Below, piece by piece: positions 3,466 to 62,564 of a DNA stretch of 64,000 nt. Both the position numbers and the translations under genes were made by a program. The notes beneath the pieces were generated by a model that made no database searches, was not told where the DNA came from, and was given only the letters and a program-made list of their open reading frames with translations. The DNA is from a virus: positions 64,001 through 128,000 of the IMG/VR virus record IMGVR_UViG_3300045988_160113. One strand, written 5' to 3'. Each line of letters opens with the position of its first letter. Positions within the stretch are counted from its first letter, which is position 1.

Positions 3466-4507
3466 CACTTTACCCAATATTTCTATTGGAGTAGACTATA
3501 TGTTACTCATTATAAAATGAGGATGCTCTTTCCCACCTACGTATCAATAGTAGGGGTACTCCCCTTCCGGGGGATAGTCGTTACAGGCTTCATTTACTAA
3601 CCCAAGCCTTTTGTTTTTTGCTATATACTGGAAGGTTTTTATAGGTGCGACCCCACAGTATTTGTTGTATTGTATTATAATTACATCTATCTTTATAATC
3701 ATTATAAATACTTTTCGCATCTTCTGAGACGTATCTTTGACGCATTTCTAGAACTTCTTTATCAGTAAATTTAGCATTGGTAGATTTTTCACCATCTGTG
3801 GCATGATATTTATAAAAGTTTTTATTTTCTTCTGTATAAACTTCCATTTTTATATCTTGCCAAGTGGAGCCATCCCAAATACTAGCAAATCCATCAAAGC
3901 TAATTTTATCTTTGAATAATTCATAAACTTCTCGTCTACGAAAATGCTCATCATAACAATTTCTTATATAAGCGACGTCTTCATTTGAAAGTTTTGTTCT
4001 GCCATTATTTTCACCACGGCCATTTTTCCCTCCGGGATGACAGTTGTAGCCAAAACCTTTATATGTGTCATAATAAGCAATCCAATAAATTTCTCTTTCA
4101 TCTAGATTTTCAAGAGAACACTCTTCGATTATTTCAAAATCGAAAGATTCAATTCCATATTTATGAATTGCTATATCTATCGCTAAATCTGTTTTTGTTT
4201 TATGTTCAGAAAATCTTCTATCTATATTATTTGATTGCCCAATATAAGATTTTCCATTTTGTTTCTTTGTAATTTTATATATGCCTATCATTGCGGCACC
4301 TCCCACAATTTTAGGCTTTGGGTTAGCAAATGATTCCCACGGGATCTGCGTGTCCTTTTTGAAAAAAGGATTTAGCTTCTCTTACCACCATAACCTTACG
4401 GTTTAGTTGCCCGTTAGCCTCTATTTATAAGTAGAATATGTAAACCCTAATTATAAAAATTTGAGACCCGATTGATAATCGAAAAGCATCTACAGACAGT
4501 TTTACTT
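3466..4507 (-). mobile_element. group I intron (about 1042 nt) with internal GIY-YIG homing endonuclease ORF
   Basis: Interrupts the Toprim motif between ...ICTDADSD and GYHIG...; the 5' exon ends in U (GAU) and the intron ends in G (..AAAGUG). Structured flanks include the GNRA hairpin CCCC-GGAA-GGGG and several other stems. Confidence 0.75.
3590..4291 (-). CDS. GIY-YIG homing endonuclease (intron-encoded)
   Basis: MIGIYKITKKQNGKSYIGQSNNIDRRFSEHK ... EIYWIAYYDTYKGFGYN; ATG at 4291 has a GGGAGG RBS (the track start at 4306 is GTG). Confidence 0.85.
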   Translation of the reverse strand: MIGIYKITKKQNGKSYIGQSNNIDRRFSEHKTKTDLAIDIAIHKYGIESFDFEIIEECSLENLDEREIYWIAYYDTYKGFGYNCHPGGKNGRGENNGRTKLSNEDVAYIRNCYDEHFRRREVYELFKDKISFDGFASIWDGSTWQDIKMEVYTEENKNFYKYHATDGEKSTNAKFTDKEVLEMRQRYVSEDAKSIYNDYKDRCNYNTIQQILWGRTYKNLPVYSKKQKAWVSK

Positions 4508-43168: not shown

Positions 43169-44361
43169 CAATTAAAAACAATGAGGCTAACGGCAGTTGC
43201 ATCAACGAAAGTTGATTAGACGGGTCGGGGTTAGCAAAGAAAGGTTAACAGGTAGTGCAGCGGTAGGTAACAAATCCGTAAGTCGAAATGAGTTGGGAAA
43301 ACCAAATGATACGGCTTAGTCCTTCGTAAGAAGTTGAAGAGAGATTTTAGGTAAAAGGTAACAACTTTTAACTGCTCTTCGTAATTGACCATGAAACAGG
43401 GTCATAGCTACCACTCATTGTTTTTAGATGTTTTATCAAAGAAGACGAATGGTTGGTGAGTCTCAAAACAACCCAACTACCACATTACTAATCATCGCTA
43501 CTCGTGGTTAGTAAGTTGTTTTAGAAGTAGCAAACCTACGAGTATGGTAGGCGGCGCGGTAATAGTCGTAAAGGGTGAGGTAAAGCTGAATTATCATTTG
43601 AGGTAGTTTCTTTCTCCTAGCCAAAAACAGAAACCGGTGCGCAGTCGTGAAATGCGGGAATGGTAGATAAGCCTTAGTGTACTACTCATACGGTTGTGAG
43701 TTCTCCTATGTATCTTGAGAACTCTCGGCGGCGAATGCCTAAATCTCCCCGCCCGCGCGGTTATAGCGGCGTTTACCAAACTGTTATTCGATAAAATGGT
43801 TTGGAAGTGCGAGTAGTAACTTGGAATTACTCCCGAAAGCAACGGTTAGATTGCTCAACTTGCTAGACTCAAGTTGACAAATGGGAGGTGGCCCCTCCTA
43901 TGTCTCCCACGCAACACTAAGCGCGGGCGTATATGGGAAATAGTCAACCATATACTTATTGGGTTGAGAGTGTAATATTATACATAAAATCCCTCTGCGC
44001 GCAGAGTAAATCTGCGGTATCGTAGTAAAAACTCTACAAAAAAACTATATCAAAGGGACGACTCTAAACGAGGTAAGGGAAACAAAGTAAAGAGTACATT
44101 CTCTTAGGCTACTTTGGTATTATATGTGGTGTGGTTGAGGAGTATGGGCGACGATACACCGGAATGCGGAGTTAGCGACATACTGTGTAGATGGCGAGTC
44201 AACAGAGCGATATAGTTTATTTTGGCTTCCTTTCCGCTCTTGCGGGATGACTCTAGGATAGCGATACTACAAAGTAAAGGAGGACTGTGATTTATTCATA
44301 GCCCTCTTTTGCTTTACCAAAATTGTGTATTTTTAGGTAGAAAATTTTACTTAGTAATAAG

Positions 44362-45029: not shown

Positions 45030-45857
45030 GTGGGATATATTTATAAGATTAGCAATACTGTAAATAATAAAGTTTATATAGGGCAAACCTCTCGAACGGT
45101 AGAAAAAAGATGGAATTTACATAAGCGAACAGCAAAAAATCCTTCTTATCTATCTTATTCATATCCTTTATATCAAGCTATGAGAAAATATGGTATAGAT
45201 AATTTTCAAATTGAAGTTATTGAAGAAACTGATAATAAAAATTTGAATGAGCGAGAAGTTTATTGGATATCTTATTATGATTCATATAATAAAGGTTATA
45301 ATATGACTTTAGGTGGAGATGGCCATTATAAATATGAAGATGAAGATTTTTTAGAATTATGGAATCAAGGGTATAATGCTGCTCAAATTACAGAAATGCT
45401 ACATTGTGATAGACATACAGTCGCCGATAGGCTATCTCAATTAGTTCCAAATTATTCTAATTTACAAAAAGAGAGACAAACTCCTTCAAGATATTCTTTT
45501 GAAAAAGAGCAAAAAATTAGAGAATGCTGGGATAAAGGAATGAGTTCTAAACAGATTCAAGAAGAATTAGGAATAAATAGAAAAGGTATAAAGGGATATC
45601 TGGTAAAATATAAAAATTTTTCCGAAGAAGACTGGGAAAAAAGAAATTATGTTCAAAGAAAAAATAGCAACCCTCAAAAAATTGCTATAAAACAATTGAC
45701 TTTAGATGGTCAAGAAGTAGCAGTACATCAATCTATTGCTGATGCTGGAAGAGCAGTTGGAGATGTTAGACGAAGTGCCAATATTCGCGCTTGTCTTATT
45801 GGAAAACAAATAACGGCATATGGATACAAATGGCAATATGCTGATAAGGAGAACTAA
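45030..45857 (+). CDS. GIY-YIG homing endonuclease (free-standing)
   Basis: GYIYKISNTVNNKVYIGQTSRTVEKRWNLHK...VYWISYYDSYNKGYNMTLGG; GTG start directly after the ClpP stop. Confidence 0.85.
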   Translation: MGYIYKISNTVNNKVYIGQTSRTVEKRWNLHKRTAKNPSYLSYSYPLYQAMRKYGIDNFQIEVIEETDNKNLNEREVYWISYYDSYNKGYNMTLGGDGHYKYEDEDFLELWNQGYNAAQITEMLHCDRHTVADRLSQLVPNYSNLQKERQTPSRYSFEKEQKIRECWDKGMSSKQIQEELGINRKGIKGYLVKYKNFSEEDWEKRNYVQRKNSNPQKIAIKQLTLDGQEVAVHQSIADAGRAVGDVRRSANIRACLIGKQITAYGYKWQYADKEN

Positions 45858-49231: not shown

Positions 49232-50425
49232 ATGACTGTTCATGATACTTATGATAATCTAATGGAAGTCCAAAAGTTTATTCTTGACCACGAAAATTGG
49301 AAAGAACTCTTGGAAAATCCTCCTTACTGCCTGAAGATTACCGTAGAGGGTACTCTTATTATGTTCAATTATAGTCAGTTGGATTCTGATTTCTATAATC
49401 CTATCGTCAAGGAATGCCGTGGTTTGATTCTTGATAAAAATACTTACCGAGTTGTGTGTCGCGCGATGGATAAGTTTATGAATGCTGAGGAAGGTGCAAG
49501 TGACCTCAATAAAATCAACTGGTTTGATTTTCAGATTCAGACTAAAATTGATGGGTCTTTGATTCGTCTTTATCATTATAACGGCGAATGGCACGTGTCC
49601 ACCAGTGGTACGATTGATGCCTTCAATGCACCTCTCAATGTTGGCGGTTACAAGACTTTCGGTGATTTATTTGCGGCAGCACTATGGAAGTATATCAATC
49701 CTGAGTGTTTTTATGGAATGCTTGACCCTACTCATACTTATTGGTTTGAGTTGACTTCTCCGTATAACCGCGTTGTTATTCCTTATGATGAAATTGAATT
49801 GACTTTTCTTGGTTGGCGCGCAAATTATGCTCCCTATAAGGAAAAGTGGCCCTCTCAGTCAGTTGTCGCAGAGTATATTCCTATTGCTAGTAGGCTTCCT
49901 CGTCAATCTTATCAGTCTCTCCGCGCGCTGGCTGATTCATTGCCTTGGAATGAAGAGGGCTTTGTAATTTGTGATAATAATTTCCATCGTGTCAAGGTGA
50001 AGTCTCCTGCTTGGATTTCTGCGCACTATCTGCGGAATAATGGCATTCAGCCTGACCGTAGACTTATTGATGTTATCCTACATGGTGAGCAGGAAGAATT
50101 GCTTACTTATGCTCCTGAATATACCGACCGTCTACACGAACTTCAAGCAATGATGGAAGAGTATCACCTGCGCGCTGATGAACTTTTTAGTGTTTATTTG
50201 GAAATGTATATTGGTTTGGATTGTCCTGGCCGCGCATGGTTCGCAAAAACTGTAAAGAAGAATAAAGAAGATTGTGAACCGTATTTGTTTTGGGCTTTCA
50301 GTAAGATTTATGGCACTCCGCGCGGTGAAATGGATGATAATAAAGATTATTCTTTCAAGAGATATGAGAAGGAAAATCTTGATGCGCGCAAGTGGGTAAG
50401 ATTGTTGAAGTTGAAGGAGGAATAA
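49232..50425 (+). CDS. ATP-dependent RNA ligase (Rnl1-like)
   Basis: Motif I QTKIDGSLI (KxDGS); ECRGLILD upstream; EEGFVICD (motif IV-like); VKVKSP (motif V-like). Confidence 0.6.
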   Translation: MTVHDTYDNLMEVQKFILDHENWKELLENPPYCLKITVEGTLIMFNYSQLDSDFYNPIVKECRGLILDKNTYRVVCRAMDKFMNAEEGASDLNKINWFDFQIQTKIDGSLIRLYHYNGEWHVSTSGTIDAFNAPLNVGGYKTFGDLFAAALWKYINPECFYGMLDPTHTYWFELTSPYNRVVIPYDEIELTFLGWRANYAPYKEKWPSQSVVAEYIPIASRLPRQSYQSLRALADSLPWNEEGFVICDNNFHRVKVKSPAWISAHYLRNNGIQPDRRLIDVILHGEQEELLTYAPEYTDRLHELQAMMEEYHLRADELFSVYLEMYIGLDCPGRAWFAKTVKKNKEDCEPYLFWAFSKIYGTPRGEMDDNKDYSFKRYEKENLDARKWVRLLKLKEE

Positions 50426-56478: not shown

Positions 56479-56982
56479 ATGCTTGTTGTTCTTGTTGGCC
56501 CTTCGTATAGTGGTAAGTCAACTGTATGTGAATTTTTCAAGAGATATTATAAGATGCAGGAACTTCCTATGTATGTTGTTTGTCCTGATGATATTCGTGA
56601 AGAACTTCTTGGTGATGCTAGCGACCAGTCAAATGGCAAGATGATTTTTGAGACTGCTTATGAAAGAGTAGACAAGGCACTAAATTCTTCTTTGAATACT
56701 GTTTTCTTTGATGCTACTTCGCTTACTCCTGCGCGCAGAAAGCCTCTTATTGAAATTGCGAAGAAACATAAAACGTGTTGCTTTGCCGTGGTTATGCCTA
56801 ACTTTACTGAAGAAGAACTCACTGCGCGCGCAGCAACTCGTGAACGTAAGGTTCCTTTAGATGTGGTCTACGCGCAGAAACAGAGAATGATTTATCCTAA
56901 TGTTGAAGAAGGCTTTGATTATACTATGGAGATTCCGAAGTCTTCATTGGATATTATGAAGGAGCGACTAAATGATTGTTAG
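56479..56982 (+). CDS. P-loop kinase (polynucleotide-kinase-like)
   Basis: MLVVLVGPSYSGKST Walker A at the N-terminus; about 167 aa. Confidence 0.55.
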   Translation: MLVVLVGPSYSGKSTVCEFFKRYYKMQELPMYVVCPDDIREELLGDASDQSNGKMIFETAYERVDKALNSSLNTVFFDATSLTPARRKPLIEIAKKHKTCCFAVVMPNFTEEELTARAATRERKVPLDVVYAQKQRMIYPNVEEGFDYTMEIPKSSLDIMKERLNDC

Positions 56983-57583: not shown

Positions 57584-57612
57584 TTGAAATTTTCTGAAGT
57601 ATATGATATAAT
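57584..57612 (+). promoter_or_regulatory. promoter cassette
   Basis: TTGAAA, 17 bp, TGATATAAT; leader ATATATAGAAAGTGAGAGAAAG. Confidence 0.65.
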
Positions 57613-57843: not shown

Positions 57844-58016
57844 AGAAAAAAATTATGAAGAAGAAGATTGTTGAAAAGTTATCTGAACTTGAGAGACGAG
57901 ATAAATTCTTCACTGAGTTAGAAGAAACTTGTCCCATTCATTATGAAGGAACAGATATTGTAGCAGATGTTTCTCTTGATGTGGAATTTATCTTTCAAAA
58001 TTTGAAAAATTCATAA
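57840..58016 (+). CDS. hypothetical small protein
   Basis: ATG 57840 (MKKKIMKKKIVEK), ATGA overlap. Confidence 0.45.
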   Translation: MKKKIMKKKIVEKLSELERRDKFFTELEETCPIHYEGTDIVADVSLDVEFIFQNLKNS

Positions 58017-58030
58017 ATCTTTGCTATAAT
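58002..58030 (+). promoter_or_regulatory. promoter cassette
   Basis: TTGAAA, 17 bp, TGCTATAAT; leader ATTTATAGAAAGTGAGAGAG. Confidence 0.65.
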
Positions 58031-58059
58031 ATTTATAGAAAGTGAGAGAGGTAAACAAA

Positions 58060-58272
58060 ATGAATAGAAGTGAGTTCTTTGAATTAGTTCATGATGTTGT
58101 TGATACATATGGTGTTTATTCTTGCCTTGATAATGAGGATGACATTGAAGAGAATAATCTCTGGTTCAACTGTCCAAATTGTGGAGACCCAATTTTGTAT
58201 GACGATTTCAAGAACGACAAAGACCTTCATGCCGGCTTCTGTCCGATTTGTGAATCTCAACTTTTTGATTGA
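58060..58272 (+). CDS. small zinc-ribbon protein
   Basis: CPNCG...CPIC; ATG 58060. Confidence 0.55.
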   Translation: MNRSEFFELVHDVVDTYGVYSCLDNEDDIEENNLWFNCPNCGDPILYDDFKNDKDLHAGFCPICESQLFD

Positions 58273-59419
58273 TAAATCCTTTCAATACTCGAATGGTCGG
58301 TGAGAGTATAAATAACCTGACTACCATGGTGAAACGGTAGTAGCCAACCAGTATAGAGGAGTTCGATTCTCTGAACCGCGGCGTTCGACTCGTCCGGTGC
58401 GAGGGCAAAACTGGTATAGCGCGAAGAAATTGGAGAGCCAGATGACGCGCTACTCTCTGATGCTGGTCAGTCTCACGTCTTGCAGAAAGCATCTAAAACA
58501 CGGGGTACGCTGAGCATTAGTCGATGCGGCGGCTTCCTAGGAGAGTTCTAACCTAGGCCAAGGTTTATGAACACCGCAAGTAAGGTTCTTCTTTTCGAGG
58601 GTGATGTATTGTGAGGAAGGGCTGAAAGACTTAGATGGGAAGTAATGATGATTACTCGATCTAAGTGTGTAGAAAATTAGAATCGAAGACCTCGTAGCGG
58701 CCGTAGCGAGGCTACCGTGTGGACGGTAATCGTGTCCTCCAAAGTGCTAGGCAAAGCGGGCATACAGAGTGGTGATTGAACAGTTATTGGCTAGTCCACT
58801 CATTGAAGCTACTAATCCTGACGTCGGAGGTAGTAGTTGACGGCAATCAAAAAGATTGTAAGTCCATGGAACTAATGCGCTGTGCTCATTGTCTATGGCA
58901 TGACTGTGAAGACTCAATAGGATGTCTTCCAAAACGATGTGAGAAGTCGTGCAGAGTGGTGATAACACTAGCCCACTCAATAAATCCAGATGATACTGGT
59001 TGAGTTGTGTGTAAGGAAGAGGTAAGGTTGGTGTGCGGTATATAAAGAAGGCCGTGATTAGCATACAACAAAAAATACAGACGAGGGGTTAGGTAATGTG
59101 ATGGATTCGGCGGGTGAAAGTCCCGTGGAGGTAGTCTGTATTCTAATTCTAATTCTAAAAACCTACATAGAAGTAATTCCACCTTGAGAAGGGTCGTCAT
59201 TCGACGAAGTATAAGTTGAGTACTACTTATACTAATAAAACAGACTGGTGGTTGAGTAGGTCATCTGGATTCTTCTAATAGGTAGCAGTCACCTACGTCA
59301 AGCGGGCCTTGTATCACGGTTTCCCGCGGAAGGCTGTAGACTGTGAGAGTGTGATAGTAAATGGGAACAGGGGAGGCCCTCAAGCACACGGGCGAGCGCA
59401 CGCCTTTCTCCCTATATAT

Positions 59420-59488
59420 GCTTAGTTGGTGTAAGGGGTAGCATAAGCCGCGGAAGCGGAGACTCTGGTTCGAACCCAGAACTAAGCA
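59420..59488 (+). ncRNA. tRNA-like module with anticodon arm replaced by a GNRA-capped hairpin
   Basis: GCTTAGT/ACTAAGC acceptor; GTGT-AAGGGGTA-GCAT D arm; CCGC-GGAA-GCGG; TCTGG-TTCGAAC-CCAGA T arm; no CCA. Confidence 0.45.
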
Positions 59489-59567
59489 CAGTAATGTGGT
59501 AACTACCATGCTCAACGCGCGAGAGTACCCGGAAGGTAGTTGACAGCCAGGAAAGACTGGCAGGCCT

Positions 59568-59636
59568 GGTCGATTAGTGTAACGGTAGCACGCCATCCTT
59601 TTATGGAGGAAGAGAGGTTCGACTCCTATGCGATCT
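59568..59636 (+). ncRNA. degenerate tRNA-like module (UUU-type loop)
   Basis: GTGT-AACGGTA-GCAC D arm; CCATC-CTTTTAT-GGAGG (one mismatch); AGAGG-TTCGACT-CCTAT; poor acceptor pairing; no CCA. Confidence 0.35.
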
Positions 59637-59745
59637 CAATTATTTATTAGGTAGTCATTACTCCATCGCGAGGAGCCTAAACAAGAGTAAAAGAATGACT
59701 GGCACTCTGGAAAGACGGAGAGACGTCTATAAAGAGGTAGTTGAT

Positions 59746-59952
59746 ATGGATTGGAAAGAAGTTGTTATTTGTGCGCCAGAGGACGCCGTAAAGAAAGCAA
59801 TAAAGTTTTGTGAAAGTCATGAGTGCGTGGAATGTCCAATTCATATCAATGATATTGAGCATAGAACAAAGTATGATAAATGTTGTGAATTTGTTCCTTG
59901 TGTGGCTAATTTGATTTATGAGTTGGTTGTGCACCCACATTATGAACTTTAG
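59746..59952 (+). CDS. small Cys-rich protein
   Basis: ATG 59746 after AAGAGG; CAPED...CESHECVECP...CCEFVPC. Confidence 0.5.
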   Translation: MDWKEVVICAPEDAVKKAIKFCESHECVECPIHINDIEHRTKYDKCCEFVPCVANLIYELVVHPHYEL

Positions 59953-59955
59953 TTT

Positions 59956-59994
59956 GGTCGGTTAGTCAAGTGGGCTAAGACACAAGGTTTTGGA
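59956..59994 (+). tRNA. tRNA-Gln (UUG), 5' half of a split gene
   Basis: GGTCGGT-TA-GTC-AAGTGGGCTAA-GAC-A-CAAGG-TTTTGGA. Confidence 0.6.
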
Positions 59995-60123
59995 GATGGT
60001 AATATAGCAATTATTGATTCTTACAGTAAAGAAGAATTAGAAAGTATTATCAAAAGTTCTTATTCTTATAAAGAAGTTCTTGAAAAATTAGGTTATTATA
60101 GTCATAGCGGAAGTTCTTATAAA

Positions 60124-60732
60124 ATGCTACAAGATAGAATTCAAAAATATAATATAGATATATCTCATTTTACTAAGAAAAAGAATATTGTTCGGAATGA
60201 AGAGAATATATTTATAAAAGATTCTACTGTTTCTCAGCATTGTTTACGAGATTGGTATTTGAAAGGTAAATATACTGAGTATAAATGCTCTATCTGTGGA
60301 CAGGAACCTTTTTGGCAAGGTAAGCCTCTTACGCTTATTTTGGATCACATAAATGGGAAAAACCATGATGATAGATTGGAAAATCTTCGATGGGTTTGTC
60401 CTAATTGTAATCAACAATTAGATACTACTGGCTATAGAAAATTCAGAACGGAACAAAAAAGCAAGAAAGAATATTTTTGTTCAAATTGTGGTAAAAAAAT
60501 ATCTAAAGGTTCTACTTTATGTGTAGAATGTTTAGGGAAAACTAACCGGATTTGTGAACGACCGAATAGACAAGAATTGAAAAATATGATAAGAACAATG
60601 AACTTTGTTGATATTGGTAAAAAATATAATGTATCTGATAACGCTATTAGAAAATGGTGCGATACTTATAATTTGCCTCGGCTTGCTACACTTATAAAAC
60701 AAATTCCCGATAACGAATGGGAAAAAATCTAA
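60124..60732 (+). CDS. HNH homing endonuclease inside the split tRNA-Gln gene
   Basis: LILDHINGKNHDDRLENLRWVCPNCN (HNH) plus Cys4 ribbons. The frame is open from 59953 through the tRNA 5' half, and upstream residues NIAIIDSYSKEELESIIKSSYSYKEVLEKLGY look like part of the protein, so the true start is probably upstream or non-ATG. Confidence 0.8.
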   Translation: MLQDRIQKYNIDISHFTKKKNIVRNEENIFIKDSTVSQHCLRDWYLKGKYTEYKCSICGQEPFWQGKPLTLILDHINGKNHDDRLENLRWVCPNCNQQLDTTGYRKFRTEQKSKKEYFCSNCGKKISKGSTLCVECLGKTNRICERPNRQELKNMIRTMNFVDIGKKYNVSDNAIRKWCDTYNLPRLATLIKQIPDNEWEKI

Positions 60733-60769
60733 CCTTGGAACAGGAGTTCGATTCTCCTACCGACTCCCA
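60733..60769 (+). tRNA. tRNA-Gln (UUG), 3' half of a split gene
   Basis: CCTTG-GAAC-AGGAG-TTCGATT-CTCCT-ACCGACT-C-CCA; joined to 59956-59994 it gives a canonical 76-nt cloverleaf. Confidence 0.6.
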
Positions 60770-61012
60770 CGAGTGAGCATTGGGCCAACTAACACTCTCA
60801 AAAATGATTGTCCCTTCTTCACCCTCCGCGTGGGCTACTCATAGCACAGAGACCACAAATGCGCGGCCATTATCAAAAGTCAAAAATCCTTGGCTTTGTA
60901 TAAGTATAGTTCTACTGGTTGAGCAACAGTATGATAATACTTTAGTTTGATGGTTGATGTGTAGAGACTTTACTTGGTTCGGCTCGGAAGTGGGTAAAGT
61001 CTTGATTTATTT

Positions 61013-61087
61013 AGAGGATTAGTGGACCAGTGGACACGCTCGGCTTTGACCCGAGAGAAAGACGGCCAGCACGTCTATCCTCTGCCA
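61013..61087 (+). tRNA. tRNA-like gene with UUG (Gln) anticodon and non-canonical T-loop
   Basis: AGAGGAT/ATCCTCT acceptor, G73, CCA; CTCGG-CTTTGAC-CCGAG; T arm AGACG-GCCAGCA-CGTCT lacks TTC. Confidence 0.5.
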
Positions 61088-61111
61088 TAATAATTTTATA
61101 AGAAGGGAGAT

Positions 61112-61753
61112 ATGAACGGTTATATTTATAAAATTACTAACGATATAAATGATAAAGTATATATCGGAAAAACATTATTGAATATTGAAAAAAGATTTCT
61201 TCAACATAAAAACGATAGTCGGAGAATTAGATTAGAAGTTCGTCCATTATACCGAGCAATAAAAAAATATGGATGTGAACATTTTTATGTTGAATTAGTA
61301 GAAGAATGCCCAATAAAAGAATTATCTAATAGAGAAATTTATTGGATTGATTTTTATGATTCATATAAAAATGGATATAATGCTACTATGGGTGGAGAAG
61401 GTAAACAATTTTATGATTATGACATTATCGTAAGTGAATTTTTATCTGGTAAAACAACAAAAGAAATAATGAATGATTTGGGTTGTTGTATTGAAACTGT
61501 ACGTAATGCTTTACATTTAGCAAATATAGATATAAATACAAATAATTATAAAAAGTATCAAAAGAATTTTGTAGCAAAGGATAAAGACAAAAAAATTGTT
61601 CAAAATTTTTTGACTAAAAGAGAAGCCGCAGAATGGCTAATCAAAAATGGTTATTCCAAAACCGATAACATTAAAAGTATTACAAGTGTAATTGGCCGAG
61701 TATTGAATGGTCAGCGAGAAAAAGCTTATCATTTTTATTGGGAGTATACTTAG
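61112..61753 (+). CDS. GIY-YIG homing endonuclease
   Basis: NGYIYKITNDINDKVYIGKTLLNIEKRFLQHK...IYWIDFYDSYKNGYNATMGG. Confidence 0.85.
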   Translation: MNGYIYKITNDINDKVYIGKTLLNIEKRFLQHKNDSRRIRLEVRPLYRAIKKYGCEHFYVELVEECPIKELSNREIYWIDFYDSYKNGYNATMGGEGKQFYDYDIIVSEFLSGKTTKEIMNDLGCCIETVRNALHLANIDINTNNYKKYQKNFVAKDKDKKIVQNFLTKREAAEWLIKNGYSKTDNIKSITSVIGRVLNGQREKAYHFYWEYT

Positions 61754-61804
61754 TTTATCAAATCTACCTGCGCCGCCATAAGAATTTATAAAGGAGAATT
61801 ATCT

Positions 61805-61927
61805 ATGAATTTTCGTACTTACGACCATTATCTCAATCGTATTTCTAAGCTAATGTCTAAGGGTGATACTAATAAGCGTCTGGTCAATAAGACCAAGCGT
61901 CGTCTGAACCAGATGAAGGAGAAGTAA
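61805..61927 (+). CDS. hypothetical small basic protein (40 aa)
   Basis: ATG after AAGGAG; TAATG overlap with the next gene. Confidence 0.4.
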   Translation: MNFRTYDHYLNRISKLMSKGDTNKRLVNKTKRRLNQMKEK

Positions 61928-62199
61928 TGAAGAAGGTATTTATGTTTTGTCTTGCGCTGGTTATGTGCTTGGTGATTACTGCTTGTAATGGTCATAACAG
62001 TATTGGTGCTGATGCCGACGCGGCCATTCCAGTCTTTACCGACACCGGTATTCGAGTGAAGAATCATCAGGACCGTGTGTATAGTATTGTCAAAGATACG
62101 AATGGTTTTCTTTATTATTGCTCCGATGTAGAAGGTACTCTTGCTCCTGTTTATAGTGAGTATGGGCTTCCTACTAAAGATATGGATATGTTTGATTGA
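61927..62199 (+). CDS. lipoprotein
   Basis: Signal peptide with lipobox MKKVFMFCLALVMCLVITAC. Confidence 0.65.
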   Translation: MKKVFMFCLALVMCLVITACNGHNSIGADADAAIPVFTDTGIRVKNHQDRVYSIVKDTNGFLYYCSDVEGTLAPVYSEYGLPTKDMDMFD

Positions 62200-62203
62200 T
62201 AGC

Positions 62204-62237
62204 CGCGCCGTGAGAGACGATGTTCTTTCACGGCGCG
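62204..62237 (+). terminator. GC-rich stem-loop (possible terminator)
   Basis: CGCGCCGTGA-14 nt-TCACGGCGCG; weak U-tract. Confidence 0.45.
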
Positions 62238-62295
62238 TGGTCTATAAATTGGTAGGAAAATAGGCTGCGCGAAGAGTGAGAAGATATAATGAAAT

Positions 62296-62324
62296 TTGAA
62301 AATTTGTTATAGTTATGATATAAT
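62296..62324 (+). promoter_or_regulatory. promoter cassette
   Basis: TTGAAA, 17 bp, TGATATAAT; leader TATTATAGAAAGTGAGGGAG. Confidence 0.65.
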
Positions 62325-62348
62325 TATTATAGAAAGTGAGGGAGAGTA

Positions 62349-62564
62349 ATGAATAAACAGTATATTGACCATATAGTTTTTTGGGGTAAGCAATGCGCTA
62401 CAATGAACAAAATTCAGGAAGCAAGAATTGCCTTACTTGATGAAATTATTTTCTATAATGATATGGTAGTTATTCTTTACGACTATGACCCTCGTGCAGC
62501 ACAGGAGTTATATTGGAAAACGCATAATATTTTTATTACCAATTTTCCAAAGGAGGAAGAATAA
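62349..62564 (+). CDS. hypothetical protein (paralog of the next gene)
   Basis: ...EIIFYNDMVVILYDYDPRAAQELYWKTHNIFITNFP aligns with 62566-62811. Confidence 0.55.
   Translation: MNKQYIDHIVFWGKQCATMNKIQEARIALLDEIIFYNDMVVILYDYDPRAAQELYWKTHNIFITNFPKEEE

Follow-up and report, generated by a model that had tools for sequence, protein, structure and literature searches.

A mobile HNH homing-endonuclease gene has probably disrupted a phage tRNA-Glu(UUC) gene by inserting into its anticodon loop

One transfer RNA gene in the viral sequence IMGVR_UViG_3300045988_160113 of the IMG/VR collection is split within its anticodon loop by a gene for an HNH endonuclease. The stretch analysed here (positions 64,001 to 128,000 of that record, 64,000 nt, hereafter the window) carries both parts of the tRNA and the inserted gene, and all coordinates without a locus label refer to it. 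The arrangement comprises the following parts:

59956..59991, + strand: 5' part of a tRNA-Glu(UUC) gene, recognised by ARAGORN on the joined halves and from the uninterrupted alleles of relatives; it contains the acceptor 5' strand (59956-62), the D arm (59965-81), the CAAGG strand of the anticodon stem (59983-87) and U32-U35 (59988-91)
59992..60732, + strand: inserted HNH homing-endonuclease cassette, recognised by its match to phrog_10822 and by the lack of a cassette in relatives L037 and L041-L044
60733..60769, + strand: 3' part of the tRNA-Glu gene, made up of CCTTG, the variable loop GAAC, the T arm, the acceptor 3' strand ACCGACT, C73 and CCA

Joined as 59956-59994 plus 60733-60769, the halves form a 76-nt cloverleaf that ARAGORN calls as a tRNA at all three possible junctions, and on the raw window with introns allowed the same program reports a gene at 59956-60769 with an intron of 739 nt. 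The split tRNA is missed by plain ARAGORN and by Rfam. Its acceptor stem is GGTCGGT/ACCGACT with a G1-U72 pair, its anticodon stem CAAGG/CCTTG and its T arm AGGAG-TTCGATT-CTCCT, followed by C73 and CCA; in this respect the initial annotation of the locus, made from the sequence alone, had described the two cloverleaf-forming halves and their stems correctly. An exact search of IMG/VR with the 5' half gave no match. Identical junctions recur in at least five independent assemblies (ERZ28575524, ERZ1755967, ERZ27255455, ERZ940695 and ERZ28656381), which rules out an assembly artefact and leaves a chimeric origin of the arrangement with practically no probability. The halves are, moreover, two parts of one gene that is uninterrupted in relatives, and hence do not pair by chance.

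The identity of the interrupted gene follows from related phages, one of them a syntenic relative (L037) located via a lysozyme-like neighbour gene and four of them metagenome contigs (L041-L044) located via the conserved downstream spacer; the AAA_33 kinase-like protein, used as a synteny probe, recovered no relatives. The orthologous site is uninterrupted in all five, and in each it is a tRNA-Glu(UUC). The tRNA-Glu of L042 has the same stems as the window and shares 73 of 75 exon bases with it, reading ...GACA CAAGG TTTTCAT CCTTG GAAC AGGAG TTCAATT CTCCT ACCGACT, and the first 30 nt of the 5' half in the window are identical to the tRNA-Glu of L037 and L044. Where L042 has the loop TTTTCAT, the window reads CAAGG TTTT, then the insert from GGAGATGG to ATCTAA, then CCTTG, and CAT is absent. 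U35 is the last native base ahead of the insert, and C36-A37-U38 of the native loop are missing. U34 and U35 of the apparent UUG anticodon are native, but its G is the first base of the GGAG ribosome-binding site of the cassette, and a UUG anticodon is therefore not encoded by the tRNA exons. Judged by its orthologues, the interrupted gene is tRNA-Glu(UUC) and not tRNA-Gln(UUG), as it had been named, and the junction, which had been thought compatible with position 37/38, lies elsewhere; the comparison with phages carrying an uninterrupted tRNA, proposed along with that name, did define the insertion point. Since C36-A37-U38 have been lost, precise excision cannot restore the original tRNA.

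The HNH gene is present at this site in the window and in L001, L002 and L125-L127, and absent from L037, L041, L042, L043 and L044. The HNH-bearing junction of the window recurs in L125-L127 in a second flanking background, as fits a mobile element. At least three alleles of tRNA-Glu occur at the locus among phages whose flanks are 84-95% identical (L037 19352-19427, L041 5674-5749, L042 2127-2201, L043 4493-4568, L044 4862-4937), differing in the anticodon and T stems by changes that are fully compensated. Variant alleles carry the loop CTTTCAC or CCTTCAA in place of TTTTCAT. This allelic diversity could reflect an arms race with the endonuclease.

The cassette consists of the GGAG ribosome-binding site (59992-95), a probable ATA start codon 8 nt after it at 60004, a reading frame of 242 amino acids and a TAA stop at 60730-32; the first ATG lies at 60124. 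The open reading frame (ORF) is intact and matches phrog_10822 ('HNH endonuclease') over its full length at an E value of 2.4e-48, while the Pfam HNH model scores 19.7 bits, slightly below its cut-off of 21.4. In a 13-member alignment of the window protein with 12 homologues it keeps every invariant residue, including the common block C-x2-C ... DHING-N-DD-LENLR-VCPNCNQQ; the family profile found no match in the PDB. With an HNH/zinc-finger motif, and with presence/absence polymorphism opposite an intact empty allele, the gene shows two of the attributes expected of an HNH homing endonuclease. The homologues begin MALIDNYSKEEL, where the aligned window sequence is IAIIDSYSKEEL, with ATA in place of ATG. 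An ATG replaced after a good ribosome-binding site is found in this family in the window (ATA at 60004), in L005/L006 (ATA, at about 2887 in L005) and in L128 (ATC, at about 2003). Because these other members also have ATA or ATC at this point, the non-ATG start of the window gene is likely real, and starts of this kind suggest non-canonical initiation, possibly for the purpose of low expression.

A search of IMG/VR yielded 253 relatives of the HNH protein. Since 392 tRNA genes lie in the best 80 of the 253 loci, each about 3.7 kb long, the family is, on sequence evidence, a resident of phage tRNA arrays. The window protein clusters with free-standing members (L003, L004, L005), apart from intron-borne ones, and its cassette has neither a promoter of its own nor flanking intron RNA. 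Homologues in L016 and L018 have TGA at conserved tryptophan positions and that in L029 has an in-frame TAG; some members thus appear to belong to phages using recoded stop codons. Several loci also hold tRNAs of 84-86 nt with a UUG (Gln) anticodon (L004 3646-3729, L005/L006 3625-3709, L075 2287-2371, L092 886-971, L105 2736-2819). In the sequences read, those of L004 and L005/L006, the variable arm is long, and in L004, L005/L006 and L075 the tRNA begins within a few nucleotides of the HNH stop codon.

A protein search uncovered a second insertion of this kind in a different tRNA-Glu allele. The HNH protein P0003, 73% identical to that of the window, is encoded bare inside a split tRNA in L128-L131. 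In L128 the order is GGCCCAT..CTGGA T, then the insert AGGATAGGAGAGG..ATC..TAA, then T TCCAG..ATGGGCT A CCA, and the uninterrupted twin of this allele, with the same flanks (L132-L135), is a tRNA-Glu(UUC) with the loop TTTTCAT. The insertion has left U32 and U38 as the sole loop bases, five nucleotides having been lost, and therefore no excision could rebuild the tRNA there. Two related HNH genes in the same loop of two alleles, each with an empty twin and with lost bases, fit a homing-endonuclease gene directed at the anticodon-loop region of tRNA-Glu and do not fit an intron. Long-term selection on the split fold, as read from compensated stem changes between the window and L128, was considered and dropped: the uninterrupted twins share the same stems. 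The perfect pairing of the halves needs no selection after insertion to explain it: it is inherited, since the stems of every filled allele are identical to those of its empty twin.

Group I introns are classically found in the anticodon loops of bacterial tRNAs (tRNA-Leu UAA, fMet, Ile-CAU of Azoarcus, Arg-CCU), and HNH genes are frequent intron passengers. The insert resembles such introns in lying in the anticodon loop after a U, and in that they too may carry an endonuclease ORF, and it could in principle be a self-splicing intron of group I, group II or another ribozyme class whose core overlaps the reading frame. The sequence, however, offers little room for this. A group I catalytic core (P3-P9) needs about 200 nt or more, whereas the insert has 12 non-coding nucleotides between U35 and the ATA and none after the stop, its TAA abutting the CCTTG strand of the 3' half. 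Over the 11 nt before the 3' junction there is no G that could be terminal, the nearest one upstream of the 3' half being at 60721. A scan of 58000-62500 with cmscan and Rfam 15 found no group I or II intron match in the insert, either at the gathering threshold or at E<=10; the sole group II match (13.9 bits, E 8.5) lies outside it at 59108-29, and no domains I-VI or domain V are recognisable within it. Known small ribozymes have no Rfam match in the window or in the related nested introns described below. The first and last 25 nt of the insert pair no better than shuffled sequences (RNAduplex, -4.2 kcal/mol vs -3.7 +/- 1.6), there is no P1/P10 potential, and the exons are three bases short of the empty allele, so that they do not rejoin to the uninterrupted sequence. 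A self-splicing intron is accordingly extremely improbable. The initial annotation had already noted an HNH gene with little room for a ribozyme core and no group I hallmarks and the lack of a terminal G at the 3' junction, both of which are borne out, and the search for group I and II cores that it had called for came back empty for the insert at E<=10.

Related phages carry, outside the window, tRNA insertions of another kind. In some, the HNH family lies within a conserved RNA frame that splits tRNA-Asp or tRNA-Glu; in others, frames of 44-120 nt lacking any ORF interrupt tRNA-Asn, -Glu, -Gln, -Lys or -Ile:

HNH-bearing nested introns: L007 2753-3677, L009 2725-3673, L011 2746-3666, L012 2741-3682, L051 1354-2299, L052 1373-2293
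ORF-less nested introns: L041 5997-6191, L042 2451-2643, L072 1329-1469 and 2576-2700, L076 1283-1402, L007 1946-2078
Further ORF-less cases: L022 2371-2509, L132 5519-5667 and 8296-8432, L134 4042-4190

Thirteen of these share a single parse. It starts with a terminal helix of 7 bp that resembles an acceptor stem; TA mostly comes after this helix, five of the 13 having AG, TC or TTA instead. A D-arm-like hairpin (in 9 of 13, where assignable) and a variable region or HNH cassette come next, then a T-arm-like hairpin (7-nt loop) directly against the 3' strand of the helix, and the element closes with a tail of N, NN or NCCA. Across the 13, helix positions pair in 99% of cells, with double changes in 14 of 16 pairs, compared with 33-41% when the pairing is slid by 1-3 columns; the helices covary strongly, in an alignment that was built by structure and so leans toward pairing. 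All ten members with an NCCA-type tail (one reads GCAA) regain a canonical anticodon loop of 7 nt when exactly nucleotide 1 through the tail is removed, and the intron boundaries thus match the mature ends that the inner tRNA-like element would have. As a working hypothesis from sequence, RNase P and a tRNA 3'-end nuclease would excise the element, and the resulting 3'-OH/5'-phosphate nick would then be ligated; three HNH-bearing members have 2-nt tails, which misfit a simple RNase Z rule. The nested introns match no Rfam family, a search of the literature on phage tRNA introns found no paper describing the nested tRNA-like kind, and a strict DNA motif for their 5' part recovered only four contigs already known; they are possibly a new class of tRNA-like introns. 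At L132 5803-6359 another ORF, of about 150 amino acids, occupies a tRNA anticodon loop closed by the 7-bp helix TTGTTCA/TGAACAA. The window insert shares with the nested introns the HNH family, the region of the loop (34/35 to 36/37) and the kinds of tRNA affected (Glu, Gln, Asp, Asn, Lys, Ile). It differs in having no 7-bp terminal helix, no D- or T-arm-like hairpins (none follows its stop codon), no N or NCCA tail and no removal that would restore the loop.

That the tRNA introns of relatives must somehow be removed is one reason to weigh protein-dependent splicing in the window, by which some endonuclease, the phage Rnl1-type ligase and a kinase would yield a working tRNA with a Gln-UUG or other anticodon. 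The window does encode a T4 Rnl1-type RNA ligase (49232-50425; PF09511, 60 bits) and an AAA_33/KTI12 kinase-like protein (56479-56982), both RNA-repair-type enzymes, and a 7-nt loop TTTTGGA or TTTTGAA can be drawn. Yet Rnl1 and a kinase (T4 Pnkp/Rnl1) are a frequent phage counter-measure against anticodon nucleases, the native anticodon base C36 is deleted, and the product would place a Gln anticodon on a Glu body. The junctions have no conserved structure, and the loop of the sister insertion in L128, left with U32 and U38 only, is not rebuildable. The bulge-helix-bulge introns of archaea and eukaryotes and the split tRNAs of Nanoarchaeum are likewise interrupted in the anticodon loop, and joining in the window would likewise depend on proteins; unlike them, the window has no such motif of two 3-nt bulges either side of a 4-bp helix, its insert ends being unpaired, no junction at 37/38 and no leader/trailer complementarity, and its setting is that of a bacterial phage (Shine-Dalgarno sites, Rnl1-like ligase, RAGATH-33). 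No splicing endonuclease (EndA/Sen) was seen among the window proteins scanned. Protein-dependent splicing is therefore very unlikely, and the unusual excision mechanism offered as the second option of the initial annotation lacks support in the window, given unpaired insert ends and the L128 remnant.

The first of those two options, a tRNA killed by the invasion of a homing-endonuclease gene, agrees with the empty and filled alleles and with the lost loop bases. There is good reason to think that a mobile, free-standing HNH gene disrupted a dispensable phage tRNA-Glu(UUC) and that no splicing takes place, and we hold this explanation to be the probable one. By it, the HNH gene would have inserted into the TTTTCAT loop after U35, taking the place of C36-A37-U38 and destroying the anticodon. 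Loss of loop bases is unusual for precise homing and points to an illegitimate first insertion. The sequence immediately before the tRNA and before the HNH gene contains no promoter-like site; strong ones occur at 57584 and 58002, and no + strand terminator was found between these and 62000. With promoters only far upstream and no terminator between, the cassette is probably read as part of a long transcript of a tRNA and non-coding-RNA operon, and translation from the ATA would be at a low level. The paired halves would probably allow RNase P and 3'-end trimming to release an RNA of 814 nt with the tRNA fold as its frame, and neither splicing nor a working tRNA would be expected to follow. 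The endonuclease presumably cuts intact TTTTCAT alleles of co-infecting relatives, into which the gene would then be copied, and the filled allele would be immune as its target is disrupted; this would account for the persistence of the element.

Several observations weigh against this explanation. The halves are undecayed, with all stems perfect, and the three exon differences in L125-L127 are compatible with the structure; the insertion could be recent, or the fold could be under some selection. Since homing is as a rule precise, the loss of three nucleotides here and of five in L128 needs an extra step. The phage also encodes the ligase and kinase-like protein already named, and related phages carry real-looking tRNA introns; on these sequence grounds, repair of the split tRNA at the RNA level is possible.

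Selection on the fold is also the point at which a further view departs from disruption by a mobile gene, with which it otherwise overlaps: the split fold may be kept as a processing and stability frame for the HNH message. Pairing of the halves through their acceptor, D-arm and T-arm strands would be followed by release of an 814-nt message ending in CCA from the polycistronic precursor, through RNase P and the enzymes that process 3' ends, and the tRNA would no longer decode and yet not be junk. Relatives have a conserved promoter-like motif, whereas the cassette itself is without a promoter; homologous HNH genes lie repeatedly inside tRNA-like frames (L007, L009, L011, L012, L051, L052); the stop codon of other family members abuts the 5' end of the next tRNA; and the stems are intact in three HNH-bearing versions. 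Each HNH-bearing allele, however, has an uninterrupted twin with identical stems (L042; L132-L135), and there is a single in-stem exon substitution between lineages. Selection for the split fold as a messenger frame is possible but unnecessary, and on balance rather unlikely. An extension of this idea, more doubtful still, is that a 'tRNA-framed' endonuclease message cut from the operon by RNase P and the 3' machinery was the raw material of the tRNA-like introns of relatives, which would be removed at their own mature ends and leave a nick sealable by an Rnl1-type ligase.

Disruption by a free-standing endonuclease gene can be set beside known systems. In Aeromonas phage Aeh1, insertion of mobE reportedly splits nrdA into 'genes in pieces'. 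As in the window, an intronless free-standing endonuclease gene there lies within another gene and divides it in two, but the NrdA pieces reassemble as protein and keep their function, which a tRNA cut in the anticodon with bases lost cannot do. The T4 SegB (GIY-YIG) and T5 F-TflI/II/IV endonuclease genes are, like the window HNH gene, free-standing residents of a phage tRNA array that some close relatives have and others lack (PMC2330249). They resemble it further in having (presumably, for the window) a tRNA-gene target and low expression, which for the window is predicted. They lie between tRNA genes and leave them intact, whereas the window gene sits inside an anticodon loop and destroys the tRNA gene.

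Three further features flank the split tRNA:

59731..59955, + strand: 225-bp insertion with a 68-amino-acid Cys-rich ORF (ATG 59746, TAG 59950-52), delimited by flank comparison with L037, L042 and L125-L127
61013..61087, + strand: tRNA-Gln(UUG)-like gene with the non-canonical T loop GCCAGCA, from sequence and synteny
61112..61753, + strand: free-standing GIY-YIG homing-endonuclease gene (Pfam GIY-YIG E 5.6e-8; PHROG 'homing endonuclease')

No relative has the 225-bp insertion that immediately precedes the tRNA, not even the HNH-bearing L125-L127; its Cys-rich ORF matches no Pfam or PHROG family. The frame of the HNH ORF is indeed open back to 59953, directly 3' of the TAG at 59950-52, as had been remarked, but the cause is this separate insertion, whose ORF lies in frame just upstream. 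Where it is lacking, in L125-L127, the HNH frame continues to an ATG 34 nt upstream of the tRNA. An alternative genetic code, with read-through of the TAG fusing the upstream ORF to the HNH protein, was considered and rejected: the window has long standard-code ORFs, and the upstream ORF is a separate insertion.

The second UUG tRNA-like sequence reported downstream does exist, at 61013-61087, though it is recognised by neither ARAGORN nor the Rfam tRNA model. It had been suggested as a replacement for the split gene; instead it is a separate gene, orthologous to a canonical tRNA-Gln(UUG) that coexists with an intact tRNA-Glu in L037 and L044. The GIY-YIG gene begins 24 nt 3' of it and is absent at this site in L037, L041, L042 and L044; the GCCAGCA-type variant together with a GIY-YIG gene is also found in L043 (4812-4897). 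Where relatives lack the GIY-YIG gene, they have a canonical tRNA-Gln as the orthologue, and similar UUG cloverleafs with odd T loops (GGCGGCA, GGCAGTA) occur at L003 about 3624-3695 and L020 2777-2846, each adjoining a GIY-YIG or HNH gene. As T4 SegB recognises a T-psi-C stem-loop motif (PMC2330249), the odd T loop may, by analogy, be a cleavage-immune variant.

Upstream, 58282-59730 is a region of about 1.45 kb with 45-55% GC, against about 30% nearby. Its conservation in L037 and L041-L044 is 80-90%, ORFs are absent and Rfam gives no match. Among its elements are tRNA-like modules, for example one at 59420-59490 and, as a weak tRNA-Lys, one at 59567-59637, as well as repeats of a GAGTGGTGAT...CCACTC motif. 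As a whole the region is a candidate for a large structured RNA. A GOLLD match below threshold (99 bits) was seen at L009 410-867. Elsewhere in the window are a RAGATH-33 RNA motif (43186-43313; 129.9 bits, above the Rfam gathering threshold) and a second GIY-YIG endonuclease gene (45030-45857) with helix-turn-helix domains that adjoins a PhoH-like gene. Relatives of the Rnl1-type ligase are common in phage contigs of 105-190 kb. A comparison of Rnl1 with intron-bearing phages covered the best 80 of 253 loci; these include the contigs of L037, L133 and L135 and do not include those of L007, L009, L011, L012, L022, L051, L052, L072 and L076.

The window offers a clear natural case of a homing-endonuclease gene killing a tRNA by landing in its anticodon loop, rather than between genes or within an intron. 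Two separate lineages have matched empty and filled alleles, which provide a ready test system for the target of the enzyme (the TTTTCAT loop of tRNA-Glu), and insertions of this type may explain the high variability of this tRNA-Glu among near-identical phages. Intron-tolerant tRNA finders will call such wrecks intron-containing tRNAs, with the wrong anticodon. The larger value lies in the nested tRNA-like inserts outside the window, which, if spliced, would represent a new splicing route; were tRNA framing with excision at mature ends to prove true, it would be a third route of tRNA splicing, dependent on protein and RNase P, in bacterial viruses.

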